Origin: Candidatus Methanophagaceae archaeon
GTDB taxonomy: Archaea > Halobacteriota > Syntropharchaeia > Alkanophagales > Methanospirareceae
DNA length: 32,000 bases
Direction of reading: 5' to 3'
Assembly (NCBI GenBank): GCA_003194425.1
Contig: PQXB01000001.1
Coordinates: 1-32,000 of the forward strand
Part shown: in pieces, positions 6,061 to 28,325 of the stretch
Layout: each line of letters begins with the position of its first letter
Numbering within the stretch: the stretch's first letter is position 1
Made by a program: the position numbers and the translations under genes
The notes under the pieces: model-generated
Told to the model about the DNA's origin: nothing
The model's database searches: none
The model's input: the letters and a program-made list of their open reading frames with translations, nothing else

Positions 6061-6125
6061 AATATCTCCCCCTCTATCTTACCTAATTATTTATAAACGA
6101 TTTTGTAGTAATGGGAGATTGAATG

Positions 6126-7917: not shown

Positions 7918-8614
7918 TCTTTGTCAATTTCGTTAAGTCTTCTATAAATTTCGGAAATCCTTTCACTTTTTCACTCTCGCTGACTTCTCGGAGAACGTAG
8001 GTCCCGTCTAATTCGTGCTCCACGACAATCCTGTTTCGAGAAGGTTCTCCCGAAAGACCTCTTACAAGGTCGCCATCTTCGTCGGCGGTAACAAAATAAC
8101 CTTTTATGTGCATTGTAAAGGGGTCGCTGGCGAGCTTCAGTTTCCAATAAGCGGTCTGTGCAACTCTTTCACGTAAGGTGATTTTGCAGGAAATTATTCC
8201 GAGAACTTTACGCGTCTCGGGGTCAAAGACCACCAAGTCAGTGTCAGGTAGCAACGCCCACTTTGTGTACCTAACCAAAAGCTGGCGGTAAATTCCGCTA
8301 AGTTCCGCGTCAAGGTTCTTTCTCTCAAGCCGACTTCCCGGAATACAGCGAAGCCCAAGACCTTTTATTTGGTCTTCAATTATGTGCAGAACCAGTCTCT
8401 CAAAATTGTTTCCTTTGAAGGCTTTCCAAGATTGCTCTGCATCTGGCGTTTTGCCGTCTGCGATTTTCTTTAGCGCTTTTGGACTGCTGAGATACTCTCG
8501 TTTGTATTCTTCACGAGCCTCCTCAAAAATCTCTGAAATGTGAAGGTAAGCCCCGTCGCTGCCGTATTCTTTCTTCTTGCTCTCATACCGCTCTTTTAAG
8601 TCGTCAAAGTTCAT
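7910..8614 (-). CDS. Putative type II restriction endonuclease (PD-(D/E)xK-like)
   Basis: 234 aa, lying 3 nt downstream of the methyltransferase gene on the same strand. Candidate catalytic segment is LLPDTDLVVFD...GIISCKITLRERVAQ. The SxK..R-E-R arrangement is reminiscent of the Cfr10I/NgoMIV-type CCGG-family enzymes, but that comparison is from memory only. Confidence 0.5.
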   Translation of the reverse strand: MNFDDLKERYESKKKEYGSDGAYLHISEIFEEAREEYKREYLSSPKALKKIADGKTPDAEQSWKAFKGNNFERLVLHIIEDQIKGLGLRCIPGSRLERKNLDAELSGIYRQLLVRYTKWALLPDTDLVVFDPETRKVLGIISCKITLRERVAQTAYWKLKLASDPFTMHIKGYFVTADEDGDLVRGLSGEPSRNRIVVEHELDGTYVLREVSESEKVKGFPKFIEDLTKLTKIK

Positions 8615-8617: not shown

Positions 8618-9439
8618 TTACTTCCCTCCTCCTCTTTCATAATGTGCCCATTTAACTTCTCTACGCCCGCCTTTTTTTGGTTTTGCGTCAGGCTTTCGCA
8701 TAATAAACAAATATTTGAAACCTCGTAGAAAAAAGTTGAATTTCCTCGCTCTGTAGTACCAGACCGCGGTGTTCGACGCTTGACCTCTGCGGACCACGCA
8801 AATAATATCCACAGTCTCAAAATATTTGCACAACCGCTCGTAAACCAAGAAGCCGACAGGAGTGAATTTCTTTTTTACCCACTGGTCGCCAATCAGCCAG
8901 CCAAGCACTTTGCCAGGCTTCAAAATCCTGCAGCATTCGCCCATCGCCTTCTCCAACTCGTCAAAGAACCGCTCCTCTTCGCACGAAATCTTGCCTATGC
9001 AGGCGGGATGATCGTTGTATTTTAGGTTGTCTGAATACGGCGAATCCACGAAGACCAAGTCAGCGGTTTCCTCTTCCAACGGTATTTCTCTTGCGTCGTT
9101 CTGAATAATATCGGAGCGAGCAGGAGCAATGTCAAAACAGACAGCCTTGCGTCCCTCTTCTTCGCAGACATCAATCGTCGTCCCGCTTCCACACATTGGG
9201 TCAACGACCAAGTCGCCAGGTTTTGTGTACCTTTGAACCAGATTGTAAATAATAAAGGCAGGAGTGACGCCGGGATATTTGTTATTTCCTTTTGGTCTTT
9301 TGCCGTAACTCTGCGTTGGGTAGTCCCACAGCGTTGTAGCCTCCACAAGCGGTTTCTTTTCTCCTTCTTTTTCTTCCGCTTCTGCTGCCTCAACCTCTTC
9401 TTCAAAGAGTGGTAACTGCTTGTTTCCTTTCCTATTCAT
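8618..9439 (-). CDS. DNA methyltransferase, amino (N6-adenine or N4-cytosine) type
   Basis: 273 aa. The AdoMet motif I (YPGVTPAFIIYNLVQRYTKPGDLVVDPMCGSGTT) precedes catalytic motif IV (ADLVFVDSPYSDN). This is permuted relative to the beta class, where DPPY comes first. The N-terminus is acidic and low-complexity. Confidence 0.8.
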   Translation of the reverse strand: MNRKGNKQLPLFEEEVEAAEAEEKEGEKKPLVEATTLWDYPTQSYGKRPKGNNKYPGVTPAFIIYNLVQRYTKPGDLVVDPMCGSGTTIDVCEEEGRKAVCFDIAPARSDIIQNDAREIPLEEETADLVFVDSPYSDNLKYNDHPACIGKISCEEERFFDELEKAMGECCRILKPGKVLGWLIGDQWVKKKFTPVGFLVYERLCKYFETVDIICVVRRGQASNTAVWYYRARKFNFFLRGFKYLFIMRKPDAKPKKGGRREVKWAHYERGGGK

Positions 9440-9473: not shown

Positions 9474-11345
9474 TCAATACTTACCTAAAGAGAGAAAGGA
9501 TTTAAATATTTCTTCTTCCTTTAGGACGGAAATCCCCAACCGACCCAAAGTGGCTTCGGTAGGCACACCGTCCTCGTCCCACCCGCGCGCACGGTAGTAC
9601 TCGCCAAGCGTCTTTAAAAACTCCTCCCGCTCGACCACCCGCCCGTTCACCTGCTCCTCAAAGAACCGCTTGGGCAGAGAGTCGTCTTCCCTCGAAAAGC
9701 CTGCCCTCAAGTTGTAAAGCCGTTCCAGATTCCAAATCCGCTCGCCGACGAGCATTAAGTCCTCGGAAGTGTAGTCCACCCCCGTTACGGCGGTCAAAAT
9801 GTTCGCGTACTCCTCCTCGCCCGCGCCGAAGAAAGCGAACTTGCAGACAACGAGCGAGTCGACCGCAGCGAAACGGTCTTGAAAAATCTTTGTGTGTCCT
9901 GCCTTGCCTGCGAGCGTGTAGGGGTCGATTGCCTTCGGCTTCCGCAGAATCTCGGGAGCGACGAGGTAAGCCCTGGTGTGGCAGCCGCCGCGGTTGGAGG
10001 TGGCGTAGCTGAAGCCCAACCCTTTCACGCCGCGGGGGTCGTAAGCAGGGAGTTCAAGCCCCTTCACCTGAACCCCCGCCTCTGGCTGCCCTTCGGCAGC
10101 CGCAAAAATCCTCGCTCCCCTGCCGAGCCGCTCGCCAAGCCCCTCTTCCCGCTCCCCGATTTTCCTCACCAACCCCAAAAGTTCAGCACCCGAGACGCCC
10201 GAATTCCGCAGTTCAGAGTAGCAGCCCAGAACGCCGGCGACCGAAATCGTGTCCAAGCCGTAGTCGTTGCAGAGCCGGTTCGCCTCAACGACCGCCTCGT
10301 AGTTCGGTTTTTGACTCTGAAGTGTCTGAATATTCGGACCAAACAGACCGACGGTCTCGTACTCCGGCAGCTCCCTGCCTTCTCTGTCCTCTCGTCTGCA
10401 CGCGATTGGGCAGGAGTAGCACGCCCTTCTTCTCGGCGAATATTTCTCGGCGACGGTCGTTGCAAAAAACTGCGTCAGGTCAAACTGCGTCAAGTCAAAC
10501 CCCTGCTCTAGCGCAGGCTCAGGCACAGACCTCCTGAAATTCGCGAAAGGCAGAATTTTCATCCAACTCGTTATTTTTACCAAGAACGGCGTTCCAAAGA
10601 CCGAGAGCCCTTTGCTTACCGTTGGGGAGGCGACGAGTAGCCGGTTAACCGCCCGCTTCTGCCTTGAAAATTCCGCAGAGTCGCAAACCTCCACTTTACC
10701 CCTGCCCTTCACCACGACCGCCTTCAGGTTCTTCGAGCCGAACACCGCCCCCACGCCGCCACGCCCGAAAGCGTGAACCCCGCCGCCGTCCGAGACTGAA
10801 ATTACCGACGCCAAATTCACGAGCCTCTCGCCTGCCCTCCCGATGCAGACTACGGTGCCCTTACTGCCCGCGTTTTTCAGAAGCTTCGCAGTCTCTTTGA
10901 CATTCCTACCCCACAACGACAACGACTCTGCTGATTTTACTTCCACCCTCTCGTCCTCCACCTCAACAAAGACCGGCTCTGTGTCTGGCGACTTGCCAAC
11001 GACAACTAACGCGTCGTAGCCCGCCTTCTTCAACTCAGGACCAAACGAGCCACCGCAGTTAGAGTCGAAAATCGTCCCAGTCAAAGGCGACTTCGTGGAG
11101 AGCGAGACTCTGCCCGAGGCTGGTGTTGTAGTGCCTGTCAAGGGACCTGCGGCAAAGACAAGCGGGTTTTCCGGCGAGAGGGCGTCCACCTCTCCGGCGT
11201 CGTAAACTATTTTCGCTCCGAGCCCACGCCCTCCAAGATATTTCTTGAGCAGCGACGAAGCGGGCGTGAAGCTCTTTATTCGCCCTTCAGAGAGGTCTAT
11301 TTTTAGTATTTTGTTCCGCCAGCCGCCCCCGTCCAAGTCAGTCAT
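9474..11345 (-). CDS. aor: Aldehyde:ferredoxin oxidoreductase family (tungstopterin enzyme)
   Basis: 623 aa. The N-terminus is GWRNKILKIDLSEGRI. The [4Fe-4S] ligand cluster is ACYSCPIAC. SYATSNRGGCHTRAY and an AOR-type C-terminal domain are present. Confidence 0.9.
   Translation of the reverse strand: MTDLDGGGWRNKILKIDLSEGRIKSFTPASSLLKKYLGGRGLGAKIVYDAGEVDALSPENPLVFAAGPLTGTTTPASGRVSLSTKSPLTGTIFDSNCGGSFGPELKKAGYDALVVVGKSPDTEPVFVEVEDERVEVKSAESLSLWGRNVKETAKLLKNAGSKGTVVCIGRAGERLVNLASVISVSDGGGVHAFGRGGVGAVFGSKNLKAVVVKGRGKVEVCDSAEFSRQKRAVNRLLVASPTVSKGLSVFGTPFLVKITSWMKILPFANFRRSVPEPALEQGFDLTQFDLTQFFATTVAEKYSPRRRACYSCPIACRREDREGRELPEYETVGLFGPNIQTLQSQKPNYEAVVEANRLCNDYGLDTISVAGVLGCYSELRNSGVSGAELLGLVRKIGEREEGLGERLGRGARIFAAAEGQPEAGVQVKGLELPAYDPRGVKGLGFSYATSNRGGCHTRAYLVAPEILRKPKAIDPYTLAGKAGHTKIFQDRFAAVDSLVVCKFAFFGAGEEEYANILTAVTGVDYTSEDLMLVGERIWNLERLYNLRAGFSREDDSLPKRFFEEQVNGRVVEREEFLKTLGEYYRARGWDEDGVPTEATLGRLGISVLKEEEIFKSFLSLGKY
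10470..10499. repeat. In-frame tandem duplication 2 x 15 nt inside AOR (FDLTQ FDLTQ)
   Basis: ctgcgtcaggtcaaa (10470-10484) and ctgcgtcaagtcaaa (10485-10499) differ at one position. Confidence 0.9.
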
Positions 11346-11720: not shown

Positions 11721-12163
11721 TTTCTTCGTTGCGAAAGGTTCAGTATTCGCACTGCGAGCAGAGCCGCGTTCGCACCGCTGTCAATTCCCACCACCGCCAC
11801 CGGAACGCCCGAAGGCATCTGCACCATCGAGAGCAGCGCGTCCAGCCCACCCAGCGACTTACCGCTCACCGGAACGCCGACGACTGGCTTCTCGGTCTTT
11901 GACGCCACTACGCCAGGCAGAGCCGCCGAGAGCCCTGCAATCGTGATAAACACCGCCACCGAACCGTCCTCCTCCTTCTCCTCCTCCTTCTCCTCTAAAT
12001 ATTTGTCCAGCGCCTTGGGGTTCCGGTGTGCAGAAATCACCCGCACCTCGTAAGCGACTTTCCGCTCCTCCAAGACCTTCACCGCCTTTTCCGCCACTGC
12101 TCTGTCGCTCTCTGAGCCCAAAATTATCGCTACTTTTTGCACTTCCTTCTGCTCCTTTTTCAC
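11717..12163 (-). CDS. purE: PurE, N5-carboxyaminoimidazole ribonucleotide mutase / AIR carboxylase catalytic subunit
   Basis: 148 aa. [18 protein letters not shown] (SAHR, class I-like) and [28 protein letters not shown] are present. There is an acidic insert, [11 protein letters not shown]. Confidence 0.9.
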
Positions 12164-12169: not shown

Positions 12170-13177
12170 TCACCCCTCCGCCCGCTCCTCTAACAGACAG
12201 GCAAACTCCTCCGTGTCCCGCATCTTCTTCAATTCCTCCTTCTCAATCAGAACCGTGTTCTCAATCTGCACCCGCCTGACCTTTCCGTTCACGACGAAGA
12301 CCGACTTCGTTCTCGTAACCTCCGAGAGACTGCTTGTTATTTTCGCTCGTTTTATCATTCGGGCGGTGTACTTGCTTACTCCTGTCAGAATTTTCACGCC
12401 TCCACTTTCTGAAACAGCACTAAAAGGGGCATAGGCAGTTCTAAAAATCTCGAACCCGATTTCTTCCAACACCCCTAAAATATCCTTCTCTAACCCCGAA
12501 CACGCTTCTTCTACTCCCGCTCCCGCTCTCACCCCCCCTTCCGCTCTCGCCTCCGCTCTCGCCTCCGCTCTCGCCTCTGCTCCTAACGCGGACAAAGGAG
12601 AGGGTCTTTCAGACTTTAAAAAATCCAACGGCACAATTAACCCTACCCGCAAAATCTCCTCGAGTCGCAGTGCAATTTCTACCGCAGTGCTCGCCCCGCC
12701 TTCCTCGTACTTGCTGACGCTCCGCCTCGAAACCCCCAACTCCGCAGCGACATCGCCCAGTGAAAAATTCTTCTTCTCCCTCGCCTCTCGCATCGCCGCC
12801 CCGTCAATATTTACAAACAATCCCCCGGTGGCGGAATAAACGAGCGGCTGCACGCCTTCGACGAAATGGTCGTACAGGGTGTGTGCGTTCAGAGCGGGAA
12901 TGCCGTACCTGTAGTAGACGACGTCGTCTTCTAAAACAGAGCCTCCCCGCCGCTCGCCCAAGACGATTGGAGAAGCGAGCAGGCAGAACGCCGCCCGTTT
13001 TATGCTCCTCGCCACTTCTTCTCTAAAGCTGTCGATGTTGTGCAATATTTTCGCTAACAGAGTTACTTCCTCACGCCGAGCCGCAAGGTCGAAACTACGG
13101 GCTTCGCACAGGGACGAGACGAGAAAGCCCGCCTCATTCAAAATCCCCTGCACCCGCGCAACCAAATCCTTCTTCAT
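12170..13177 (-). CDS. Archaeal XRE-type HTH transcriptional regulator (COG1395-like)
   Basis: 335 aa. The central helix-turn-helix is FSLGDVAAELGVSRRSVSKYEEG. The N- and C-terminal domains look typical of the conserved euryarchaeal COG1395 family. Its start overlaps the proC stop by 4 nt. Confidence 0.7.
   Translation of the reverse strand: MKKDLVARVQGILNEAGFLVSSLCEARSFDLAARREEVTLLAKILHNIDSFREEVARSIKRAAFCLLASPIVLGERRGGSVLEDDVVYYRYGIPALNAHTLYDHFVEGVQPLVYSATGGLFVNIDGAAMREAREKKNFSLGDVAAELGVSRRSVSKYEEGGASTAVEIALRLEEILRVGLIVPLDFLKSERPSPLSALGAEARAEARAEARAEGGVRAGAGVEEACSGLEKDILGVLEEIGFEIFRTAYAPFSAVSESGGVKILTGVSKYTARMIKRAKITSSLSEVTRTKSVFVVNGKVRRVQIENTVLIEKEELKKMRDTEEFACLLEERAEG
12541..12576. repeat. 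In-frame perfect tandem repeat 3 x 12 nt (ccgctctcgcct) encoding (AEAR)n in the HTH regulator
   Basis: Three identical 12-mers lie at 12541, 12553 and 12565. Degenerate copies flank them. Confidence 0.9.
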
Positions 13178-14142
13178 TTTGAATTCTGATTTTTTATTTG
13201 TCTGTTCTTTTGCTCTGCTATTTCCCTTGCACGCCGTGTCGCAGCAATTACCGCCATCATCATCGCCGCCTTAACAGCCCGCGATTCAAGTGCGTACAAC
13301 CCGCGCACTGTCGTCCCGCCCGGAGAAGCGGTCATTTCTTTTATCGCAGACGGCTTCTCCCCTGCTAAAACCAGCCGTGCAGCCCCAACCGCAGTCTCAG
13401 CCGCAATCGCGAGCGACAATTCGTACGGCAGCCCCTCGTGCACACCGCCCGCCGCCACCGCGTCTAACACCTCGGCGAAGAACGCAATTCCACTGCCACT
13501 CAACCCCGTGACAACGTCCAACTCGCTCTCTTTCACCGAGTGAACAGTGCCAACCGCACTAAAAATCCACTTTGCCAGCTCTTCGTCCTCTTCTGTTGCG
13601 TACTTCCCCCGGCACACCGCAGAGACCGCCTCTCGCACGCGTGCTCCTACATTCGGCATCACACGAACAACCTTCACCCTCGCTCCTTCCCTTCCTTCTA
13701 CCCCTGCCTCTACTCCTGCTTCTGCCTCTACTCCTACTCCTGCTTCTGCCTCTACTCCTTCTCCTACCCCTGCCTCTGCAAACCAGTTCTCTACCGCGCT
13801 TGTCGGCACGCCAGCAGCCACCGAGATCAAAACCTTCTGCCCGCCACTCAGGAACGGTGAAATCTCTTCTACCACCTTTCGCACGTCGTTCGGCTTAACC
13901 GCAAGAATGACCACCTCCGACTTCTCCGCCACCTCCGCGTTGCTCTCGCAGACAACGACTCGTGAGCTTGAAAAAAATCCGAGCCGCTCTTTGTCTACGT
14001 CGCTTAAAAAAATCCTCGCTCCTTCCTCTGCTGCACCCGGTTCAGCAGCAGCCAAGAGCCCGCGAAGAATTGACGCTCCAATGTTTCCCACACCGACAAT
14101 TCCAATTCGCTTCTTCGCTGCCCCTGAATTCCTTGCGTTCAT
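13174..14142 (-). CDS. proC: Pyrroline-5-carboxylate reductase
   Basis: 322 aa. The Rossmann motif is IGIVGVGNIGASILRGL. VVRVMPN and the C-terminal MTASPGGTTVRGLYALE are present. It is about 50 aa longer than typical ProC because of Ala/Glu/Gly/Val-rich inserts. Confidence 0.85.
   Translation of the reverse strand: MNARNSGAAKKRIGIVGVGNIGASILRGLLAAAEPGAAEEGARIFLSDVDKERLGFFSSSRVVVCESNAEVAEKSEVVILAVKPNDVRKVVEEISPFLSGGQKVLISVAAGVPTSAVENWFAEAGVGEGVEAEAGVGVEAEAGVEAGVEGREGARVKVVRVMPNVGARVREAVSAVCRGKYATEEDEELAKWIFSAVGTVHSVKESELDVVTGLSGSGIAFFAEVLDAVAAGGVHEGLPYELSLAIAAETAVGAARLVLAGEKPSAIKEMTASPGGTTVRGLYALESRAVKAAMMMAVIAATRRAREIAEQKNRQIKNQNSK
13711..13758. repeat. In-frame perfect tandem repeat 2 x 24 nt (tactcctgcttctgcctctactcc) inside proC
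   Basis: 13711-13734 is identical to 13735-13758. Related cccctgcctc motifs flank it at 13701 and 13767. It encodes GVEAEAGV-type repeats on the minus strand. Confidence 0.9.
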
Positions 14143-15770: not shown

Positions 15771-16577
15771 CTATTTAACCCCCGCCGCTCCCGCTGCTAC
15801 TTCTACCGCCGCTACCTCTACTTTCTCTTCTCCAACCACAAAAACATAATCCTCAATCGTCTCAAACTCAAAACTTTCTCCGCCTTCCTTCTTTCCACCG
15901 CCGTTACCGCGGTCGTTAAGAAGTTTTATCTTCACCACATTTGGCTCGGGACTTCGCACCTTTCTTATCTCCGCGATTTCGCCGGTCTGAGCCGAGTGCT
16001 TCCCCCCTACGACCATCACTTTGCTCCCCTCTTTGTACGCGAAGTGCTGCAATATTTGGTTCTCAGGAACGGAAATCAGCAACGAGTCGTGCGTTTTTAT
16101 CTTCGTTCCCTCCCCCTCCACAGCCTCCTCTCCCAGCAGAATATTCCTACCGTCGTGCAGGTTCAACTGCGTCCGCCCTTCTCTTAAGACCCTCTTCCCG
16201 TTCACGCGGCAGAGTTTCTTGGACGCTTCCCTTTCCTCCGTCGCCTCGGTCTCCACCAGTCTCAGCCGCCCTTTTTTGTCCAACAGCACCAAATAATCGG
16301 CTTTTACAGCGGGAACAGAAAGAATGTCAAAGATGCCGACGGGAAACTTGTGGTCTCTTCTCTCCTTGCCGTTAACCACGACATTGCCCTCGTTCAGTAC
16401 TCTCCTCGCTTCTCTGCTACTGTCCGCCAACTTCAAAATGTCCCGCACGATCAAAAGCAAAGGCAAACTTCTCTCCCCTGGGTGCGGTCCTGGTCTTGGC
16501 TTCACCGTCCAGTAGGCTGTCTTCCGCTCTATTCGCCAGCTACGCGGCGCTGCTATTCTCTTCTGATGTCTTCCCAT
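15771..16577 (-). CDS. rps4e: Ribosomal protein eS4 (S4e)
   Basis: 268 aa. The N-terminus is MGRHQKRIAAPRSWRIERKTAYWTVKPRPGPH. S4 and KOW regions are present. Low-complexity inserts (GNGGGKKEGGE, a VEVAAVEVAAGAAG tail) are also present. Confidence 0.92.
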   Translation of the reverse strand: MGRHQKRIAAPRSWRIERKTAYWTVKPRPGPHPGERSLPLLLIVRDILKLADSSREARRVLNEGNVVVNGKERRDHKFPVGIFDILSVPAVKADYLVLLDKKGRLRLVETEATEEREASKKLCRVNGKRVLREGRTQLNLHDGRNILLGEEAVEGEGTKIKTHDSLLISVPENQILQHFAYKEGSKVMVVGGKHSAQTGEIAEIRKVRSPEPNVVKIKLLNDRGNGGGKKEGGESFEFETIEDYVFVVGEEKVEVAAVEVAAGAAGVK

Positions 16578-16657: not shown

Positions 16658-17521
16658 TTATTTTAGTTCCTGTGAGTCTTTCACGCCACTGCCGGTAATG
16701 AAAAACTCGCAAGAAGTGTCCTCCGGCATCGAGCGGTGCTTCCTCAGTGTCGCCCGTCTTTTACCTCGCCCCTCCACCGCCTTCTCGAGCTGCACAATCA
16801 CTTTAGAGAGGTGCTCAAGCGAGTAGCCACCAGCGGGTCGTAAATTCCCGTTTCCGACATCAAAATAGACCTGATTCGTGATTAGGACTGCGAGGTCGTG
16901 CTTGCGGGCGATTTCAAGGAGTTGCATTATTTGGTTCGCCAAAACCCGCCGCAGATAAATGCTCCGCTCGTCGTCCAACTCCAACCTGTAGAAGAGCGTG
17001 GCAGAGTCAAGAACCACGAGTGCAACTCGGCTCTCCTCCCCCCGCTTCTCCTTTACCACCGTCTCAATCTCGTTTATGCAGGAGGTCTGCTGCTCAAAAC
17101 TGTGCGGCTCGTAAATTATAATTCTTCGTGCTGCCTCTTCTACATTTTCTACACCTCCTCCTTTCTCTCTCCCTTCTTCTCTCCCTTTCTCTCTCCCTTC
17201 TTTTCTCCCTTCCTCTCTCCCTTCTTCTCTCCCTTCCTCTCTCCCTTCTTCTCTCCCTTCCTCTCTCCCTGCGTCCTCGTTCGTGCTTGAACAACAGGCA
17301 CTGGCGATCTGCAGGAATCGCTCGGGCGAGAAGCCCTCGCTGTCGATAAAAATCACGCTCCTGCCTGCTTTCGCGCATTTTACCGCTGCCTGCAGGCAGA
17401 GGTTCGTCTTTCCGCTGCCTGCCTCGCCGTACAACTGCGTTACGGCGCCGGACTCGAAGCCACCGCCCAGCAGTCTGTCTACGCTCCTGCAGCCGCTGCT
17501 GTATTTCGTGGGAAGTTGCAT
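16658..17521 (-). CDS. radB: RadB recombinase paralog with a roughly 50-aa (EGRE)n insert
   Basis: 287 aa. VDRLLGGGFESGAVTQLYGEAGSGKTNLCLQ (Walker A) and ALVVLDS (Walker B) are present. The insert is AGREEGREEGREEGREEGREEGRKEGREKGREEGREKGGG. Confidence 0.85.
   Translation of the reverse strand: MQLPTKYSSGCRSVDRLLGGGFESGAVTQLYGEAGSGKTNLCLQAAVKCAKAGRSVIFIDSEGFSPERFLQIASACCSSTNEDAGREEGREEGREEGREEGREEGRKEGREKGREEGREKGGGVENVEEAARRIIIYEPHSFEQQTSCINEIETVVKEKRGEESRVALVVLDSATLFYRLELDDERSIYLRRVLANQIMQLLEIARKHDLAVLITNQVYFDVGNGNLRPAGGYSLEHLSKVIVQLEKAVEGRGKRRATLRKHRSMPEDTSCEFFITGSGVKDSQELK
17154..17270. repeat. 117-nt uninterrupted homopyrimidine tract (+ strand) with 12/24-nt periodicity inside radB
   Basis: There is no a or g between 17154 and 17270. 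A perfect 24-mer, ctctcccttcttctctcccttcct, occurs at 17215-17238 and again at 17239-17262. Confidence 0.9.
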
Positions 17522-18841: not shown

Positions 18842-18930
18842 CCCTCCTCTGTTCTCCCTTCTTCTCTCTACTCTACTCCCTTCTCTACTCTCTACACTCT
18901 CCCTTTCTCTGCCCCCTCCTCTGCCTCCAC
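18842..18930. repeat. Intergenic polypyrimidine (+ strand) tract
   Basis: Only 9 of 89 positions are purines. CT-rich motifs (ctctact, cttctct) recur. It lies immediately upstream of the minus-strand MgtE-like gene. Confidence 0.8.
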
Positions 18931-20267: not shown

Positions 20268-23200
20268 ATGCCAAGAGCAGAAGATGTCAAGAAGGTGCTG
20301 GTAGTCGGGTCGGGTCCGATTCAAATAGGGCAGGCGGCGGAGTTCGACTTCTCGGGCTCGCAGGCGTGCCGTGCGTTGCGGGAAGAGGGAGTGGAGGTGG
20401 TGCTCGTGAATTCCAACCCTGCGACGATAATGACCGATTTTGAGATGGCGGATGTGATTTACATCGAGCCGCTGGTTGCGGATGTGTTGGCGAAGATCGT
20501 GGAGAAGGAGCGACCAGAGGGTATTTTGGCGGGCTTGGGCGGGCAGACGGCACTGAACCTGACCGCGGAGCTGGCAGAGCGGGGCGTGTTGTCAGGCTGT
20601 GGCGTAAAAGTTCTCGGTACGCCTTTAGAAGCCATTTACGACGCCGAAGACCGCGAGCGGTTCAAACAGACGATGAAAAGGATAAACGAGCCGATTCCGC
20701 GGGGCGTTACTGTCAATTCGGTAGCAGAGGCGGAGGTGGCTGCGGCGGAACTGGGACTGCCACTCGTCGTCCGACCTTCTTACACGCTGGGCGGCACGGG
20801 AGGGGGAATTGCGCGGACGCTGGAGGAGTTGCGTGAGACGGTGGCTTACGGGCTGCAAATGTCACGGATTCATCAGGTCTTGGTCGAGGAGAGCGTGCTC
20901 GGGTGGAAGGAAATTGAGTACGAGGTGATGCGGGACGCGAACGACACCTGCATCACGATTTGCAATATGGAGAACCTCGACCCAATGGGAATTCACACTG
21001 GCGAGTCCGTCGTGGTCACGCCGTCGCAGACATTGACCGACGAGGAGCACCAAATGCTGCGGTCCGCGGCGATAAAAATAATTCGTGCGCTGAAGGTTGA
21101 GGGCGGCTGTAATGTTCAGTTCGCACTGCGGAACGGGGAGTACAGAGTAATTGAAGTGAACCCGCGTGTCTCGAGGTCGTCGGCGCTCGCGTCGAAGGCG
21201 ACGGGCTACCCGATTGCGCGGGTCGCGGCGAAGATCGCGATTGGGCTGCATTTGGACGAGATCCAGAACAATGTGACTGCGGAGACGCCTGCGTCTTTTG
21301 AGCCTGCGATTGATTATGTTGTGGTAAAGATTCCGCGGTGGCCGTTTGACAAGTTCCCGAGCGCGGACAGGACGCTGACGACCGCGATGAAGAGCACGGG
21401 CGAGGTGATGGCGATCGGGCGGAGTTTTGAGGAAGCGCTGCAGAAGGCTCTTCGCTCTCTTGACCTTGACGCAGACAAGGGATTTGGTGCGGGGTGGGGG
21501 AGTGAAAGTGAGCCGGGGTGTGGCAGTGAGCCGGGGTGTGGCAGTGAGCCGGGGTGTGGCAGTGAGCCGGGGTGTGGCAGTGAGCCGGGGTGTGGCAGTG
21601 AACGAGAGAAAAGGTCGGAAGCGGAGTTGAGGTGGCTTTTAGAAACGCCGACCGACGAGCGGATTTTTGCGATTTACGAGGCTTTGAAACGGAAACAAGA
21701 ACAGGAACAAGGACAGGGGTTTAGCGTTGAGGAGGTTGCGGAGCTGAGTGGCATCGACAAGTTTTTCATAAAGAAAATTGCGAAGATTGTGGAGTTGGAG
21801 GGGAAGTTAAAAGAGAAAGGGAGAGAGAGAGAAAAAGAGAGAGAGAACAGGGATCTGGAGGGGAATTTGAGGGAGGCGAAGCGGTTGGGGTTCAGCGACG
21901 AGCGAATTGGTGCGCTGACTGGGCGAAGCCGAGAGGAGGTGAGCGACATAAGAAGGAGAGCGGGCGTTCTTCCGACTTACAAAATGGTCGACACCTGCGC
22001 GGCGGAGTTCGAGGCGAAGACGCCCTACTTCTACTCCTGCTACGAGACGGAGTGCGAACTGAAGCCGTCGCAGTCGAGACGGAAAAAGATCCTGATCGTC
22101 GGTGCGGGTCCGATTCGGATTGGGCAGGGAATCGAGTTCGACTACTGCACCGTGCACGCGGTCAAGGCGCTAAAGGAGGAGGGAATCGAGGCACACATCA
22201 TAAACAACAACCCCGAGACCGTTTCCACAGACTACGACACCTCGGACAAGCTCTTCTTTGAGCCGCTGACGCTTGAGGATGTAGTGAATGTGGTGGAGAA
22301 AGAGGGCTACGACGGCGTGATGCTGCAGTTCGGCGGTCAGACCTCTGTGAATTTGGCGGTACCGCTGAAGCGCGAACTTGAGCGGCTGGGGTTGGGGAGG
22401 GGGGAGGCGAAGATGAAAACGAAGACCGTGATTCTGGGGACAGACCCCGAGAAAATAGATGTCGCAGAGGACAGGGAGCGGTTCAGCAAGTTCCTCCGCC
22501 GTCTCGGAATTCCGCAGGCTGACAGCGGCTACGCAACTTCGGCAGCGGAAGCGAGGGAAGTAGCCGAGCGGATTGGGTTTCCTGTGCTTGTCCGCCCTTC
22601 TTACGTGCTGGGCGGGCGGGCGATGGAAATCGTGCACGACGAGGACGAACTGGCGAGGTACATTCGAGAGGCGGTGCGGGTCTCGAAGGAGAAGCCGGTG
22701 CTGATTGACAGGTTCTTGGAGAAAGCGACTGAAATCGATGTGGACGCAGTCTGCGACGGCGAGGAGGTTCTAATCGGCGCGGTGATGGAGCATATTGAGG
22801 AGGCGGGCGTTCATTCCGGCGACTCTGCCTGCGTTATTCCACCACAGTCGTTGTCCGCGGAGGTCTTGGCGACGGTGCGGGACTACGTGCGGCGAATCGC
22901 AGTAGGGTTGGAGATAAAAGGGCTGCTCAACATTCAAATGGCTGCCAAAGACGGCGTGGTCTTCGTGCTTGAGGTGAACCCGCGGTCGAGCAGGACAATT
23001 CCGTTCGTTGCGAAAGCGACAGGAATTCCGCTTGCGAAGCTCGCGGCGAAAGTGATGCTCGGGCACAAACTGCAGGAGTTGGGTTCGGCAGTGCAGGAGT
23101 TGGGTTCGGCAGTGCAGGAGTTGGGTTCGGCAGTGCAGGAGTTGGGTTCGGCAGGCGCGAGCGTCGGCGTTAAGGGCAAAGAACGCGAGCCGGGGCAAGG

Positions 23201-23789
23201 GCATGTCGCGGTGAAGGAGGTCGTGCTGCCGTTCTTGAAGTTGAAGGGCGTTGACACGATTTTGGGTCCCGAGATGAAGAGCACGGGCGAGGTGATGGGA
23301 ATAGACGACGACTTCGGTAAGGCGTTCTTCAAGTCCGAACTCGCGGCTTACAACCCCCTGCCTCTCGATTCGGGCAGCACGGTCTTTATTTCGGTCTGCG
23401 AGGCAGACAAAGAGGGAGTGGTGGAAGTTGCACGGAAGTTGAAGGAGGCGGGACTGTCTGTTGTCGGCACAGAGGGGACTGTGGAATGTCTGCGGCGGTG
23501 CGGGATTGCCGCTCAGAGCCTGAGGAAGTTGCACGAGGAGCACGAGGGGGTGCCGAATGTTGTAGAAATGATGCGGTTGCGGGAGGTGAAATTAGTGATA
23601 AACACACCCACAGACAAGCAGTCCTACAAGGACGGCTACCAGATTCGACGGGCTTGCATTGACCTCGGAATCCCGTACATCACGACGATGCAGGCGGCGA
23701 GCGCGGCTGCGGACGCGATATTGGGCGTGAAAACATTCGGACGGAGGGGAGGGGTTGAGGTGAAGTCAGTGAACGAGTATTTCAAATAA
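20268..23789 (+). CDS. carB: Carbamoyl-phosphate synthase large subunit (fused, full length)
   Basis: 1173 aa. It has two ATP-grasp halves (VLVVGSGPIQIGQAAEFDFSG and ILIVGAGPIRIGQGIEFDYC). VDTCAAEF, LGPEMKSTGEVMG and an MGS-like C-terminus are present. No carA is adjacent. Confidence 0.95.
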   Translation: MPRAEDVKKVLVVGSGPIQIGQAAEFDFSGSQACRALREEGVEVVLVNSNPATIMTDFEMADVIYIEPLVADVLAKIVEKERPEGILAGLGGQTALNLTAELAERGVLSGCGVKVLGTPLEAIYDAEDRERFKQTMKRINEPIPRGVTVNSVAEAEVAAAELGLPLVVRPSYTLGGTGGGIARTLEELRETVAYGLQMSRIHQVLVEESVLGWKEIEYEVMRDANDTCITICNMENLDPMGIHTGESVVVTPSQTLTDEEHQMLRSAAIKIIRALKVEGGCNVQFALRNGEYRVIEVNPRVSRSSALASKATGYPIARVAAKIAIGLHLDEIQNNVTAETPASFEPAIDYVVVKIPRWPFDKFPSADRTLTTAMKSTGEVMAIGRSFEEALQKALRSLDLDADKGFGAGWGSESEPGCGSEPGCGSEPGCGSEPGCGSEPGCGSEREKRSEAELRWLLETPTDERIFAIYEALKRKQEQEQGQGFSVEEVAELSGIDKFFIKKIAKIVELEGKLKEKGREREKERENRDLEGNLREAKRLGFSDERIGALTGRSREEVSDIRRRAGVLPTYKMVDTCAAEFEAKTPYFYSCYETECELKPSQSRRKKILIVGAGPIRIGQGIEFDYCTVHAVKALKEEGIEAHIINNNPETVSTDYDTSDKLFFEPLTLEDVVNVVEKEGYDGVMLQFGGQTSVNLAVPLKRELERLGLGRGEAKMKTKTVILGTDPEKIDVAEDRERFSKFLRRLGIPQADSGYATSAAEAREVAERIGFPVLVRPSYVLGGRAMEIVHDEDELARYIREAVRVSKEKPVLIDRFLEKATEIDVDAVCDGEEVLIGAVMEHIEEAGVHSGDSACVIPPQSLSAEVLATVRDYVRRIAVGLEIKGLLNIQMAAKDGVVFVLEVNPRSSRTIPFVAKATGIPLAKLAAKVMLGHKLQELGSAVQELGSAVQELGSAVQELGSAGASVGVKGKEREPGQGHVAVKEVVLPFLKLKGVDTILGPEMKSTGEVMGIDDDFGKAFFKSELAAYNPLPLDSGSTVFISVCEADKEGVVEVARKLKEAGLSVVGTEGTVECLRRCGIAAQSLRKLHEEHEGVPNVVEMMRLREVKLVINTPTDKQSYKDGYQIRRACIDLGIPYITTMQAASAAADAILGVKTFGRRGGVEVKSVNEYFK
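21507..21596. repeat. In-frame perfect tandem repeat 5 x 18 nt (agtgagccggggtgtggc = SEPGCG) in the carB oligomerisation domain
   Basis: Five identical 18-mers start at 21507, 21525, 21543, 21561 and 21579. Confidence 0.95.
23071..23154. repeat. In-frame perfect tandem repeat 4 x 21 nt (tgcaggagttgggttcggcag = QELGSAV) in carB
   Basis: Four identical 21-mers start at 23071, 23092, 23113 and 23134. Confidence 0.95.
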
Positions 23790-24135
23790 AAAAAATTGGT
23801 TTGTCTAAAAATTAATAAATCAGCACAGTTTACGGAGAAGGATTTAGAGGAAGATATCAATGCGGCGTTAAAGGAGTAATGTATGCCCGTTTCAAATGCT
23901 TCGCCTTTTAATATACCTTGCAAAATTAGGATTTTTGACTTTGTTTGTTGAGACGTCTCTGCCAGCAGCAAATTGTTGCAGGTAAAAAGGAACGCCACCA
24001 GTTTCAAGTCCAGGACTGTCTCGTCACCAAGTGCGTCGTAAACGCTTGCTATAAATTGCCCTACTTGCTCGTTAATGGCTATTTTTGACGAAAGGGAATA
24101 GACGTGCTCTTTCCCAGCGAAAAGTTTTTCACCAG

Positions 24136-24145
24136 TTTTTTATGA
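24136..24145 (+). promoter_or_regulatory. TATA-like box upstream of mutS
   Basis: ttttttatga is centred about 27 nt upstream of the ATG at 24168. That spacing is consistent with a leaderless or short-leader archaeal transcript. Confidence 0.3.
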
Positions 24146-24167
24146 GGTTCTACCCATTTACCCATTA

Positions 24168-27100
24168 ATGAGTGCTATGCCAGAGAAGACGAGAATGATG
24201 CAGCAGTACTACGAGGTAAAAAAGAAGCACCGCGACTGCATCGTGCTGTTTCGTGTCGGTGATTTTTACGAGACCTTTGGCGAGGACGCGAAGGTGGCGT
24301 CGAAGGTGCTGAACATTACTTTAACCGCAACTGGGCGGGGTAAAGGAGCAGCGAGGAGAATTCCAATGGCTGGCGTCCCTTTCCACGCCGTAACACCTTA
24401 CATCAAGCAACTCGTGAAGAAGGGCTACAAAGTCGCAATCTGCGAGCAAGTAGAGGGTAAGAAGAACGACAAAAAAGGGAAGAAGGTTGTGCAGCGGGAG
24501 GTCGTGCGTCTGATTACGCCGGGCACGGTGATCGAAGATTCTTTCCTGGAAGAACGGCTCAGCAACTACCTGATGTGCGTGAACATAATGGGTGAGAGAG
24601 AACCCAGGGTCGGAGTTGCGGTCGCTGACGTCTCGACAGGCGAGTTCTTGCTGACCGAGTTGGAAGACGACGCCTCCCACTCGTCGCTGCTAAACGAGGT
24701 GGAGCGGGTGAAGCCTGCGGAGATAATTCTGCCCGAGTCGCTTGAACTCGAACTTGGGCTGGACAGTAGCCAGTCTAGCTTGAAGAGGCAGGAGGGGTGC
24801 ACGGTCTCCCGCTACGACGACTACTACTTCGACTACAAGAACGCCTACACGACGCTGCTAAACCATTTTGGAGTAATTTCGTTGGACGGCTTCGGGTGCG
24901 GTGGCGGTGGCAGAGGCAGGGAGTTCAGAGCAGGAGTAACAGCCGCGGGTGCCGTGATTTCTTACCTACGCGAGACGCAGAAGAAGGTGCTCTCGCACAT
25001 TAAACCGCCCAAGACATTCTGGGTCTCGGATTTTATGATTTTAGACAGCGTTACTGTTCGCAACCTCGAAATCTTTAACAACATTCGCGACGGGACGCAA
25101 CGAGGGACGCTCGTTAGCGTGCTTGACAAGACGCTGACTGGAATGGGCTCACGGCGGTTGCGGAAGGCTCTGCAGTTCCCCCTGCTCGACACCCGCGAGA
25201 TAAAACGCAGGCAGGAGGTGGTGGGCGAGTTTTTTGCGGACATTCTGCTGCGGGAATCGTTAAAGGAGGTTCTCAAGGAGATTTACGACCTCGAGCGAAT
25301 TGTTAGCCGTGTCTCGTACGGAAATGCGAACGCACGGGACTTGGTCTCGCTGAAGCGGAGTTTAGAGCAGTTCTCGACGCTGCGGGAGGTCTTGAAGGGC
25401 TGCCGCTCGGAGAAGATAAAAGAGGGGTTGCGGACTTCTTTGAGGTCTTCTTCAAGCGACCTCGGCTTCGGTGAAATTGTGGATTTGGTGGAGCGGAGCA
25501 TCGTGGAGGAGCCGCCGGCGACGGTGAAGGAGGGAGGGTTGGTGAAGGCTGGGTTCAACGCCGAGTTGGACGAGTTGAGGAAAATAAAGAGCGAGGGGCG
25601 GAGGTGGTTGGCGGAGTTTGAGGGTCGCGAAAAGGCACGAACAGGAATAAAATCGCTTAAGGTCGGCTACAACAAGGTCTTTGGCTACTACCTCGAAGTG
25701 CGGAGGGCGTGGCTCGGGAAAAGGAAAGTGCCTGCCTCTTACACCAGGAAGCAGACGCTCACAGAGGCGGAGCGGTTCGTTACCGAGGAGTTGAAGAACT
25801 ACGAGGCGAAGGCGTTGAGCGCGGAGGAGCGGATAAAAGAGTTGGAGTACGAATTGTTCGAGCAGGTTAGGAAGGCGGTTGCGAAGCGGGCGAAGGAGAT
25901 TCAGGAGGCTGCGGATTTCATCGCCGAGTTGGACACGCTTCTGGCTTTTGCCGAGGTCGCTGCCGAGAACGGGTACTGCTGCCCTGAAGTGAGCGGTGAG
26001 GGAGGTGAAATCGTAGTGAAAGAGGGGAGGCACCCGGTAGTGGAGCGGGAGGTGAAGGAGGGCTTCGTGCCGAACGACGCTCGGCTCGACGAAAACAATC
26101 GGCTGATGATTCTCACGGGTCCAAATATGAGCGGGAAATGTATTGGTCCAGAAACACTGATTTTTACCGAGTGTGGTCTTCTGCCACTTTTGAAATTCAA
26201 ACCTGCGGGAATAAAGAAGGGAGAGTTCAAAGACCTCGAGGTGTGTCTGTGCGGAGAAGACGGAATTGAGCGAACCTCAAAATTTTACTACGACGGCAGG
26301 AGAAAGACCGTGAAAATAACGACACGGCTCGGATACACAATCGAAGGAACAGAGGAGCACAGAATTTTGGTGAGGGAAAAGGAGGAAAAAGGAAATCACT
26401 GGAAGCGACTGGGCGATTTGAAAACAGGCGAATACGCAGTTATAAATCGTGGGATGGATTTTTGGGGAACCGAGACCAAAATAGAGGCGAAGAGAATAAA
26501 AAGGCACTACCACTTTAATACGAAAAAATACAGAGTGCCGAGTGAGTTGGACGAGGACTTGGCTTACTTGCTCGGTCTGCTGATTGGCGACGGCACGCTG
26601 ACTTATAAAAATAGTTTTTCGTTGAGCACTGGAGACGAGTTCGTGGCACGAGAGTTCAGGCAGATAAACAAGAGGCTCTTCGGGAAGGAGGTAGGGCGTA
26701 AAAAGAACGGCAAGGACTACTTCGTCTCAAGCCTATTTTTGCGGGACTTTTTCTTTGACCTGGGCGTCGGCTACCAGGACGCGTGCCACAAGGAAGTTCC
26801 AGAGTGCATTCTCGCAGCACCAAAAGAGATTGTAAGGGCGTTCTTGCAGGGGCTCTTCGACACCGACGGCTACGCGGACGCGAAATACGGGAACGTGAGC
26901 GTCTCCAGTTCCTCAAAGAAGATCGCAGAGCAGTTGCACGTGCTGCTGCTGAATTTCGGGATAATTTCAAGCCTGCGGCGGAAGGAGACGAAGAGGAACG
27001 ATTCTTACACAGTTAGCATTTACGGCGAGAACAGTCTGCGGTTCTACGCCGCGGTAGGGTTCAGGTTGAGGCGGAAAGGGGACAGGGCGTTGTTGGGGAC

Positions 27101-28325
27101 CGATTTGAGAATGCCGAACGTTGATGTTGTTCCTCAAATTGAAGGGAGGTTGAAAAAAATAGAGAAGGAAATAGTGGCGAGGGGAAAGCAGGGTTTGGAG
27201 AGCAGATTGAGGTTAAAGCACAACAAAAGCAGGAGCGGGATATTTTATTCATATTTGAGGCAGGGCAGAAATTTGTCTTACTTCAAACTCAAGCAACTCC
27301 TCGACTACTGCGAGCGGTTAGGGGTTGAGTGCGGGGAATTGGAGGAGTTGAAGGGGCTGTTTCAGAGGAACTACTTTTACGACCGGGTGAAGAAAATAGA
27401 GGCGTCAGAATCGGATGTTTACGATTTCACAGTCCCCAAATCGCATTCTTTCGTTGGAAACGGGTTCTTGAACCACAATTCTACTTTTATGCGGCAGACC
27501 GCGTTGGTCGTGCTACTGGCACAGCTCGGCTCGTTCGTGCCTGCGAAGGAAGCGAGGGTGGGGGTGGTGGACAGGATTTTCACGCGGGTCGGGGCTTACG
27601 ACGACCTCTCGATGGGGCAGAGTTCGTTTATGGTCGAGATGAGCGAGACTGCGAATATTCTGAACAACGCGACCGAGCGGAGCCTGATAATTCTCGACGA
27701 AATCGGGCGCGGCACGAGCACACTCGACGGCGTCAGCATCGCGTGGGCGGTTGCAGAGTACGTTCACACCAGGCTGCGGGCGAAGACGATGTTTGCGACG
27801 CACTTCTACGAACTGACCGAGCTCGCTGACTCTGACAGACTTGTGGGGACGAAATGCTACAACGTCTCGATAAAAGAGGTCGGCGACGAGATATTTTTCG
27901 TCAGGAAAGTCGTGCAGGGCAGGGGCTCAAAGAGCTACGGGATTCAGGTCGCGAAGTTGGCGGGGCTGCCCGCGGAGGTGGTGGAGAATGCGAAAGGTAT
28001 TTTGAAGAGGTTGGAGAGTGGGGCAGGGAAGGGAGGACGGAAAAAGGAAGGAGCGGTGGTGGAGGGAGAAAAGGAGGAGGAAGAAAAGGAGGAGGAAGAA
28101 AAGGAGGAGGAAGAAGAGGAAGAGGGAGAAGAGGAAGAGGGAGAAGAGGAAGAGGAGGGGGGAGAAGAGGAGGAGGGAGAAGAGGAAGAGGAGGCGAAGG
28201 CGACGAAGGAACGCGTTGTGCAGGAGCACCCTGTGGTTGCAGAGTTGAAGTCGTTAAATTTGGAGAGGGTTTCGCCGATCGAGGCGTTGAACAAGTTGTA
28301 CGAGATGAAGAGGAGGTTGCGTTGA
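24168..28325 (+). CDS. mutS: DNA mismatch repair protein MutS (bacterial MutS1 type), intein-containing precursor
   Basis: 1385 aa. The N-terminal mismatch-binding domain has MMQQYYEVKKKH...GDFYETFGEDA. The Walker A motif is GPNMSGK / STFMRQ, interrupted by the intein. SSFMVEMSETANIL, LIILDEIGRGTSTLDG, ATHFYELT and SYGIQVAKLAGLP are present. The C-terminal helix is SPIEALNKLYEMK. Confidence 0.9.
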   Translation: MSAMPEKTRMMQQYYEVKKKHRDCIVLFRVGDFYETFGEDAKVASKVLNITLTATGRGKGAARRIPMAGVPFHAVTPYIKQLVKKGYKVAICEQVEGKKNDKKGKKVVQREVVRLITPGTVIEDSFLEERLSNYLMCVNIMGEREPRVGVAVADVSTGEFLLTELEDDASHSSLLNEVERVKPAEIILPESLELELGLDSSQSSLKRQEGCTVSRYDDYYFDYKNAYTTLLNHFGVISLDGFGCGGGGRGREFRAGVTAAGAVISYLRETQKKVLSHIKPPKTFWVSDFMILDSVTVRNLEIFNNIRDGTQRGTLVSVLDKTLTGMGSRRLRKALQFPLLDTREIKRRQEVVGEFFADILLRESLKEVLKEIYDLERIVSRVSYGNANARDLVSLKRSLEQFSTLREVLKGCRSEKIKEGLRTSLRSSSSDLGFGEIVDLVERSIVEEPPATVKEGGLVKAGFNAELDELRKIKSEGRRWLAEFEGREKARTGIKSLKVGYNKVFGYYLEVRRAWLGKRKVPASYTRKQTLTEAERFVTEELKNYEAKALSAEERIKELEYELFEQVRKAVAKRAKEIQEAADFIAELDTLLAFAEVAAENGYCCPEVSGEGGEIVVKEGRHPVVEREVKEGFVPNDARLDENNRLMILTGPNMSGKCIGPETLIFTECGLLPLLKFKPAGIKKGEFKDLEVCLCGEDGIERTSKFYYDGRRKTVKITTRLGYTIEGTEEHRILVREKEEKGNHWKRLGDLKTGEYAVINRGMDFWGTETKIEAKRIKRHYHFNTKKYRVPSELDEDLAYLLGLLIGDGTLTYKNSFSLSTGDEFVAREFRQINKRLFGKEVGRKKNGKDYFVSSLFLRDFFFDLGVGYQDACHKEVPECILAAPKEIVRAFLQGLFDTDGYADAKYGNVSVSSSSKKIAEQLHVLLLNFGIISSLRRKETKRNDSYTVSIYGENSLRFYAAVGFRLRRKGDRALLGTDLRMPNVDVVPQIEGRLKKIEKEIVARGKQGLESRLRLKHNKSRSGIFYSYLRQGRNLSYFKLKQLLDYCERLGVECGELEELKGLFQRNYFYDRVKKIEASESDVYDFTVPKSHSFVGNGFLNHNSTFMRQTALVVLLAQLGSFVPAKEARVGVVDRIFTRVGAYDDLSMGQSSFMVEMSETANILNNATERSLIILDEIGRGTSTLDGVSIAWAVAEYVHTRLRAKTMFATHFYELTELADSDRLVGTKCYNVSIKEVGDEIFFVRKVVQGRGSKSYGIQVAKLAGLPAEVVENAKGILKRLESGAGKGGRKKEGAVVEGEKEEEEKEEEEKEEEEEEEGEEEEGEEEEEGGEEEEGEEEEEAKATKERVVQEHPVVAELKSLNLERVSPIEALNKLYEMKRRLR
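26139..27479 (+). mobile_element. Class 1 intein with LAGLIDADG homing endonuclease domain (447 codons) in the MutS P-loop
   Basis: It starts at Cys (tgt, 26139) right after GPNMSGK and ends ...FVGNGFLNHN (aat, 27477-27479), followed by Ser+1 (STFMRQ). Block B is GYTIEGTEEHRILV. The LAGLIDADG motifs are LAYLLGLLIGDGTL and FLQGLFDTDGYAD. Sampled intein lines have 24-28 G+C per 60 nt against 39-40 in flanking mutS lines. Confidence 0.9.
28061..28194. repeat. 134-nt uninterrupted homopurine tract near the mutS 3' end encoding a poly-Glu/Lys/Gly linker
   Basis: There is no c or t from 28061 to 28194. It encodes EKEEEEKEEEEKEEEEEEEGEEEEGEEEEEGGEEEEGEEEEE. Internal 15-nt (aaggaggaggaagaa) and 18-nt periodicities are visible. 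Confidence 0.9.

Follow-up and report, generated by a model that had tools for sequence, protein, structure and literature searches.

Variable number tandem repeats (VNTRs) in prokaryotic coding sequences classically lie mostly in genes for surface proteins, adhesins or host interaction, where the variation is read as adaptive, and simple-sequence contingency loci switch genes on and off through frameshifts, by means of units not divisible by three, or through changes in promoter spacing. Amino-acid tandem repeats (aaTRs) have been described in Borgs, extrachromosomal elements of Methanoperedens, where they occupy 0.62% of the Borg genomes versus at most 0.01% of Methanoperedens, and where the repeats contain no cysteine, TGC being one of the codons that they do not use at all (Schoelmerich et al. 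2023, PMC9879509). In addition, Persi et al. (2023, PMC10120016) reported that short-repeat proliferation is widespread and transient, and that in prokaryotes it can also touch ancestral functions. Here we analysed a stretch of 32,000 nt (positions 1-32,000 of the forward strand of contig PQXB01000001.1, assembly GCA_003194425.1, Candidatus Methanophagaceae archaeon; hereafter the window), in which carB, the gene for the large subunit of carbamoyl-phosphate synthase (CPS), carries an array of 18-nt units encoding (SEPGCG)5. We found no account in the literature searched of tandem repeats of this type in anaerobic methanotrophic archaea of group 1 (ANME-1)/Methanophagales, and one ANME-1 population-genomics paper that we found disregards variants of 50 bp or less. 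Our data support, with a probability of roughly 0.8, a model in which the array is an in-frame VNTR formed by slippage or tandem duplication and filtered by selection for reading frame and for tolerant loops.

The sequence-only reading of this locus had proposed five perfect in-frame 18-nt repeats inside carB, and the sequence, Tandem Repeats Finder (TRF) and the translation agree with it exactly. TRF returned a period of 18 nt, 5.3 copies with 100% matches and no indels, and a score of 190; five whole units (21507-21596) are followed by the 5-nt partial unit AGTGA (21597-21601), and the open reading frame (ORF) at 20268-23789 runs uninterrupted through the array with the translation ...GAGWGSE(SEPGCG)5SEREK.... 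The unit consists of 55% G and 13% A, with Cys encoded by TGT. With up to three mismatches allowed, it occurs five times in the window, each time inside the array, versus a chance expectation of 0.02 matches, and none of 100 dinucleotide-preserving shuffles reached five occurrences; a metagenome scan recovered the unit only in conspecific carB. Since 81 CarB orthologs with 63-78% identity (alignments A1 and A3) have no residues at the array site and read ...DKDFGAG-YE(N/K)WSE... there, the segment is a lineage-specific insertion, as had been suspected, and in none of these orthologs does it stand as conserved sequence.

The number of units differs among strains. We compared the window with seven conspecific contigs (L001-L007) from independent assemblies (ENA, JGI and NCBI), which share 97-99.6% nucleotide identity with it in BLAST-aligned blocks; global alignment, made for five of them, gives 99.0-99.4%. 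Perfect units are found in the window, (SEPGCG)5, in L006, (SEPGCG)2, and in L007, whose contig stops within the array after at least 4.4 perfect units. The remaining alleles are SEPECG-SEPGCG-SEPECG-SEPGCG in L002 and SEPGCG-AGSGCG-SELGCG-SEPGCG in L003 and L004 alike (four diverged units each), SEPGCG-AGSGCG-SEPGCG in L005 (three units, diverged) and RGCG-AGCG-SEPECG, with 12-nt units, in L001. Copy number is thus polymorphic in related genomes, as the sequence-only reading had suggested might be found, with conspecific assemblies carrying 2, 3, 4, at least 4.4 or 5 units, and all allele length changes at the site (6, 12, 18, 24 and 60 nt) are multiples of three. The array is a copy-number-variable coding minisatellite, that is, an in-frame VNTR in carB. 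Because other strains carry diverged units, the array is older than the window's allele, having diverged in some strains and been re-homogenised or expanded in others. The very recent expansion that had been proposed from the identity of the five copies holds for the homogeneous five-copy allele, which alone is recent, and fails for the array itself, given the three to four mutually diverged units present elsewhere.

As in other coding VNTRs and minisatellites, identical units stand head to tail, their number differs by strain, the frame is maintained, whole units are gained and lost, and the density of single-nucleotide polymorphisms (SNPs) is raised at and near the array. In a comparison of six conspecific carB alleles, the 450 nt surrounding the repeat sites (window 21468-21917) hold 18 of the 37 SNP columns, a cluster that could reflect local hypermutability or relaxed constraint and may partly be due to alignment ambiguity in the repeat. 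As such, the array is an ordinary, slippage-type member of the coding VNTR class, although, unlike the classical prokaryotic cases, its host gene encodes a cytoplasmic biosynthetic enzyme and the affected neighbours are likewise housekeeping genes. Perfect, diverged and decayed arrays stand side by side at this locus, as in the low-complexity growth analysed by Persi et al.; that work, however, described a cross-genome statistical trend and young, fast-evolving families, whereas here one old, slow-evolving enzyme has gained 105 residues. Slippage-prone repeats within genes are shared with contingency loci, but the genic units at this locus are 12-36 nt long and, except for a GA tract, multiples of three, and it is length that changes and never the frame. 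A phase-variable contingency locus was rejected: each change at the site adds or removes a multiple of three nucleotides, and the array has ORF sequence on both sides.

Several strains co-occur across the samples, and exact-sequence look-up in the assembly collection returned no copy of the window CarB, nor of the window Pyr_redox protein, on record; a cluster 99% identical to the window CarB outside the repeat sites includes MCW7071383.1 (from the Methanophagales metagenome-assembled genome (MAG) GCA_026133975.1). One JGI contig ends within the array, as when assemblers fail to resolve repeats, and tandem repeats are a documented source of assembly error (PMC6868369). The copy number and the perfection of the five copies might be in part an artefact of a de Bruijn-graph loop, or of the collapse or mixing of strain variants, in an array that is itself real. 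We consider this unlikely, as ordinary Illumina reads, and the k = 141 of several related assemblies, exceed the 95 nt of the array, so that reads should span it, and as independent assemblies give perfect multi-unit alleles of two (L006) and at least 4.4 units (L007). In addition, loops are excluded for the diverged-unit alleles (L002, L003, L005 at ~500x coverage), whose k-mers are unique, and the same biology is seen in the second array of carB and in every other indel. A mis-estimated copy number would leave the existence and the variability of the array intact.

Directly upstream of the array lies a degenerate proto-unit, GCGGGGTGGGGGAGTGAA, which is likely to have been its seed, and left-flank-like sequence of the GGTGCGGGG type is found again inside the array in some strains (L003 and L001), which demonstrates misalignment between flank and unit. 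A foreign or mobile insertion (intein, insertion sequence remnant or variable region of a diversity-generating retroelement (DGR)) was rejected, as the units derive from local flank or native sequence, as the unit is absent from the rest of the window and as the metagenome scan recovered it only in conspecific carB; no search aimed at a DGR template or reverse transcriptase was made. Hairpin-driven instability was rejected as well, as neither strand of the array folds better than shuffles (z = -0.89 and -0.78).

The host protein has the full CarB architecture: two homologous halves, each with a pre-ATP-grasp and an ATP-grasp part, are separated by an oligomerisation domain, and an MGS-like allosteric domain lies at the C-terminus. 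Pfam recognises CPSase_L_D1 and CPSase_L_D2 twice each, CPSase_L_D3 and MGS, all above cut-offs, the large subunit of E. coli CPS (1bxr) matches residues 1-1151 with E = 0, and the closest protein matches are Methanophagales/ANME-1 CarBs. An AlphaFold model based on an 86-sequence alignment (mean predicted local distance difference test (pLDDT) 77.7, predicted template modelling score 0.83) aligns to 1bxr_A with a template modelling score of 0.95, normalised to the target. The orthologs have a median length of 1072 and a maximum of 1099 residues versus 1173 in the window, where 105 lineage-specific inserted residues are spread over nine sites (residues extra relative to at least 80% of orthologs; Table 1), and most segments with a pLDDT below 50 fall on these inserts (400-447, 518-521, 711-717, 943-975, 1091-1093 and 1158-1161). 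According to the continuous alignment of the insert-free ortholog segment to E. coli 383-548, the insertion point of the array is the F409-D417 loop of E. coli CarB. E. coli is 5 residues longer in this loop than the ANME-1 orthologs, and the loop, which joins the carboxyphosphate half to the oligomerisation domain, appears from the alignment to be length-variable by nature. We take the oligomerisation domain of E. coli CPS to span about residues 404-553, following structural work; in the window CarB the Pfam match to this domain covers residues 458-551, and its late start places the array in the linker that opens the domain and not in the core. The earlier assignment to an oligomerisation-domain loop is thus right as to the opening of the domain and needs correction in that the array lies in a linker N-terminal to the Pfam core. 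In the AlphaFold model, which answers the earlier recommendation to model the loop, the region forms a poorly predicted loop on an otherwise intact fold: residues 400-447 reach a pLDDT of ~22-38 (the array ~22-25), residues 405-447 are modelled without secondary structure, and the insert is almost without alignment depth. The array most probably forms a flexible and disordered protrusion from a CarB fold that is normal elsewhere.

Given the position of the array at the entrance of the oligomerisation domain, and the retention of the Cys-Gly codons in all units of seven alleles while other positions vary (G/E, P/L and SEP/AGS), the repeat might be a selected functional module, namely a Cys-bearing flexible loop (CxxxxxC) with a metal, redox, oligomerisation or condensate role and with copy number as a tuning knob; the Borg study, too, argues that aaTRs are selected and create functional disordered regions (PMC9879509). 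We regard such a role as distinctly unlikely. The kept GGGGTGTGG core is also common to the flank, so the misalignment process itself would preserve it, all 81 orthologs function without the segment, and the alleles span about 2 to 5 units with non-conservative changes within units. No known metal-binding motif was matched, and we found no evidence for a function of the cysteines in the array. Moreover, the neighbouring genes carry chemically unrelated repeats (GREE, AEAGVE, QELGSAV and E-rich) with no shared chemistry, which favours a mutational cause.

The repeat in carB is no singular event but belongs to a regime that affects the whole locus. At a TRF score of at least 50, the window and the conspecific contigs hold 4.1 arrays and 3.1-3.7 in-frame periods per 10 kb, versus 0.32 and 0.11 at four other ANME-1/Alkanophagales carB loci and 0.39 and 0.15 at 80 diverse prokaryotic carB loci (1.44 Mb), the latter taken from a contig scan with CarB in which the matches listed were all distant CarBs (47-61% identity), with no ANME-1 representative among them. 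The array density of the window is thus about 10-fold that of either background, and the Poisson probability of its array count at the background rate is ~1e-9. The repeat in a core enzyme, which had been called unusual for a prokaryotic housekeeping gene, is indeed so among prokaryotes in general, but not within this locus, with its ~4 arrays per 10 kb. The periods of 10 of the 11 genic arrays are divisible by three, the eleventh being the GA tract with its 30-nt indel, whereas three of the five intergenic arrays have periods of 22-23 nt. Apart from two 1-nt changes in homopolymer-type runs and one 3.4-kb gene cassette, all indels between strains are multiples of three (6-96 nt), and most of these frame-preserving indels are copies or near-copies of adjacent sequence. 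In ~5-6 kb of conspecific sequence outside the window two further arrays were found, and none in the ABC-transporter segment.

The second perfect array of carB, (QELGSAV)4, had been missed by the sequence-only reading. It is present in two copies in most strains, three in L006 and four in the window, and its site shows a 42-nt indel relative to all five globally aligned conspecific contigs. The first copy contains the native LQELGS, aligned with LAEQG of E. coli, and the region (residues 943-975) again has a pLDDT below 50. The GA tract of carB (KGREREKERE) is a 30-nt presence/absence polymorphism, with the indel at 21819 relative to L002, L003, L004 and L005.

The closest analogue of this regime is the aaTRs of Borgs. 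In both cases there are perfect repeats of at least three units and at least 50 nt, with lengths divisible by three in ORFs and not in intergenic regions, flanked by partial repeats (here the 5-nt 3' partial and the 14/18 degenerate 5' unit) and with several arrays per ORF; close relatives differ in copy number, the repeats are missing from homologs elsewhere, the affected regions are predicted, here tentatively, to be disordered, the units have a biased composition, and the load is similar. By the thresholds of the Borg paper (perfect nucleotide repeats of at least three units and at least 50 nt), two arrays qualify, both in carB, and perfect arrays make up 0.56% of the window versus 0.015% of the background. 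Unlike Borg aaTRs, however, the present arrays lie on the cellular chromosome of an ANME-1 archaeon, near the genes for ribosomal proteins L5 and S4e, ilvC, proC, purE and mutS, and not on a Borg of Methanoperedens, and they affect core enzymes, ribosomal and repair proteins, whereas Borg repeats are found mainly in extracellular and membrane proteins.

This resemblance leaves room for a system devoted to forming repeats, as hypothesised for Borgs, that is, a polymerase, nuclease or integrase acting on purine-rich seeds, in the archaeon or in a resident element. It would agree with a load close to that of Borg genomes, with perfect repeats that have partial copies at their flanks, with the restriction of three-divisible units to genes, with biased unit composition and with a lineage-specific excess that composition does not explain. 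We nonetheless find it improbable, since no enzyme emerged as a candidate, the units are enriched in G plus A, whereas Borg units are enriched in A alone, cysteine codons are used here, and many arrays are imperfect, two-copy or already decaying, as expected of ordinary duplication and decay; moreover, for Borgs, too, such a system is hypothetical. Genic repeat units are 85% purine on the coding strand versus 58% for coding sequence overall, and all genic arrays pooled contain 51% G and 33% A. Coding strands in the window are purine- and G-loaded on either strand (33% G and 21% C, with GC skews of +0.2 to +0.3 for plus-strand and -0.15 to -0.34 for minus-strand genes), a loading common to other ANME-1 loci. 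Purine loading or G+C content as a sufficient cause was rejected, as other ANME-1/Alkanophagales loci with the same purine fraction or G+C have almost no arrays.

Together, these data can be explained by in-frame slippage and tandem duplication under selection. A short G-rich native stretch (GAGWGSE) would have been duplicated in tandem, after which replication slippage or unequal recombination would have enlarged and shrunk the array and exchanged copies out of register, while selection would act as a double sieve, passing only units in multiples of three and retaining arrays only where the protein tolerates extra length. The five identical units of the window would represent a recent re-expansion from one unit type, and the insert as a whole would be nearly neutral. 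As repeat density is far above that of other ANME-1 and of prokaryotes, the primary cause would be a lineage-specific mutational or selective regime, with more tandem duplication or weaker removal, rather than anything specific to CarB, and this regime probably extends to the whole genome. Archaeal PolB and PolD slip on tandem-repeat templates, according to work that PMC9879509 cites. We further speculate, at somewhat less than even odds, that a tandem-repeat regime like that of Borgs operates on the chromosome of this ANME-1 species, at near-Borg density and in core, ribosomal and repair genes, whereas sister species of the same base composition lack such repeats.

Several points weigh against this explanation. 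Slippage is deduced from the pattern of the repeats, the array has no unusual hairpin potential, and nothing points to a particular polymerase or repair defect; nor does purine loading explain the excess (purine fraction 0.567-0.570 in ANME-1 versus 0.573). The copy number of the perfect 95-nt array depends on short-read assembly, and the L007 contig breaks inside it. No unit in any allele has lost the Cys-Gly codons TGT GG(C/T), so the peptide might be under selection and the insert not neutral, and a low pLDDT in an insert without alignment depth is weak evidence of true disorder. Finally, the genome-wide claim builds on ~32 kb plus ~5-6 kb of conspecific sequence from one chromosomal neighbourhood.

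Table 1. Repeats, inserts and host genes in the 32,000-nt window. Positions are nucleotides of the window unless given as CarB residues.
Feature	Position	Strand	Basis or remarks
carB, CPS large subunit, 1173 aa	20268-23789	+	Pfam, PDB 1bxr, AlphaFold
carB array, 18-nt unit AGTGAGCCGGGGTGTGGC x 5.3, perfect, (SEPGCG)5 + SE	21507-21601	+	TRF
Degenerate proto-unit GCGGGGTGGGGGAGTGAA (AGWGSE)	21489-21506	+	14/18 match to rotated unit CCGGGGTGTGGCAGTGAG
Second perfect carB array, 21-nt unit x 4.0, (QELGSAV)4	23071-23154	+	TRF
carB GA-only low-complexity tract, encodes KGREREKERENR	21812-21848	+	TRF; insert residues 517-528
carB (AACAAG)n-type repeat, KQEQEQGQ	21694-21717	+	TRF; 8-residue insert (476-483) versus orthologs
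CarB insert site 1	residues 408-445		versus orthologs
CarB insert site 2	residues 476-483		versus orthologs
CarB insert site 3	residues 517-528		versus orthologs
CarB insert site 4	residues 603-604		versus orthologs
CarB insert site 5	residues 708-716		versus orthologs
CarB insert site 6	residues 939-952		versus orthologs
CarB insert site 7	residues 956-972		versus orthologs
CarB insert site 8	residues 1089-1091		versus orthologs
CarB insert site 9	residues 1159-1160		versus orthologs
RadB/Rad51-like recombinase repeat, 12/24-nt, (GREE)n, ~9 units	17160-17270	-	TRF, Pfam, PDB
ProC (pyrroline-5-carboxylate reductase) repeat, 18/24-nt, AEAGVE-type	13698-13777	-	TRF, Pfam, PDB
MutS C-terminal purine-only repeat, units 15-36 nt, E/G/K acidic tail	28061-28194	+	TRF, Pfam MutS I-V
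HTH_3-domain protein repeat, 12-nt x 3.6, (AEAR)n	12540-12582	-	TRF, Pfam; 36-nt strain indel nearby
purE (AIR carboxylase) repeat, 12-nt x 2.4, perfect, in EEKEEEKEE stretch	11967-11995	-	TRF, Pfam; 9-nt indel in L003
Aldehyde:ferredoxin oxidoreductase (AFOR) repeat, 15-nt x 2.3, FDLTQ x 2	10467-10500	-	TRF, Pfam
UbiD-family decarboxylase GGAGAG-type repeat, G/E-rich insert between UbiD_N and core	6778-6826	+	TRF, Pfam
Ribosomal protein S4e C-terminal repeat, 15-nt x 2.1, VEVAA x 2	15791-15821	-	TRF, Pfam
Intergenic tandem duplication	306-352		period 23 nt
Intergenic tandem duplication	6126-6171		period 23 nt
Intergenic tandem duplication	18853-18910		period 22 nt

Beyond carB, the repeats of the RadB-like recombinase and of ProC, too, interrupt conserved folds as insertions, as their alignment with solved structures shows. 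In the RadB-like gene (16658-17521, minus strand), (GREE)n separates the Walker-A region from the remainder of the ATPase core and splits the Pfam Rad51 match in two, with RadB 2cvf from the PDB aligning on either side only, and strains differ at this site by 36- and 60-nt indels. The ProC repeat forms an insert of ~35 residues relative to solved pyrroline-5-carboxylate reductase structures, and the alignment to 5bse skips query residues 122-156. The length of MutS varies by strain between 1348, 1373, 1378 and 1385 aa, with indels of 96, 36 and 21 nt. The mutS gene (24168-28325, plus strand), which lies directly downstream of carB, is of the bacterial type, with domains I-V and an intein with a LAGLIDADG homing-endonuclease domain; a mismatch-repair gene thus itself carries a VNTR in this repeat-rich region.

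It is mutS, and not carA, that comes after carB in the window and the conspecific contigs, behind a gap at window 23790-24167, whereas carA directly follows carB at three other ANME-1 loci (L088-L090, 13216-14337). The window ORFs that were scanned include no CPSase_sm_chain gene; carA may lie elsewhere in the genome, and the absence of an adjacent copy leaves the identity of CarB unaffected. Just upstream of carB (window ~19994; L002 6305-9727) there is a 3431-bp presence/absence polymorphism, a cassette that in L002 comprises a carbamoyltransferase (Carbam_trans_N/C), a GDSL-type lipase and a DUF5989 gene, is at least partly present in L001 and L005, and is missing from the window and L003. 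Around one of the intergenic duplications, the region 6080-6330 differs by ~110-nt blocks from conspecific contig L092, which has a gene for a 173-aa hypothetical protein there, while the window has no long ORF, and the gene may have been disrupted in the window. On the minus strand the window also encodes a restriction-modification pair, a BsaWI-like endonuclease (7910-8614) and an N6/N4 DNA methylase (8618-9439). In L092 (15691-16582) ~560 nt, most of the endonuclease gene, are absent and the methylase is kept, an endonuclease presence/absence polymorphism with an orphan methylase left behind.

The arrays are strain markers for ANME-1 populations, and they call for caution in assembly and in the quality control of MAG proteins by length. 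In carB they provide a clean natural case of a large, essential and slowly evolving enzyme that tolerates a growing, probably disordered insert, with the strains capturing successive stages of insert growth; the residues gained at all nine loop sites together amount to ~10% of the length of CarB. The density of in-frame repeats seen here, in an uncultured methane-oxidising archaeon, has otherwise been highlighted mainly for Borg elements, and such repeats are reported to be virtually absent from the genomes of their host Methanoperedens (PMC9879509). If the species does run a comparable regime, pervasive repeat formation would not be specific to Borgs but a mutational state of the cell itself, switchable by lineage, in archaea that oxidise methane, and its cause (polymerase, flap processing or repair) and effect on protein evolution would be testable by comparative genomics. 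Thus, if the pattern is genome-wide, the repeat-rich species and its repeat-poor sister would offer a natural comparison for the control of archaeal tandem duplication, and the same comparison could show how disordered regions are born in old proteins.

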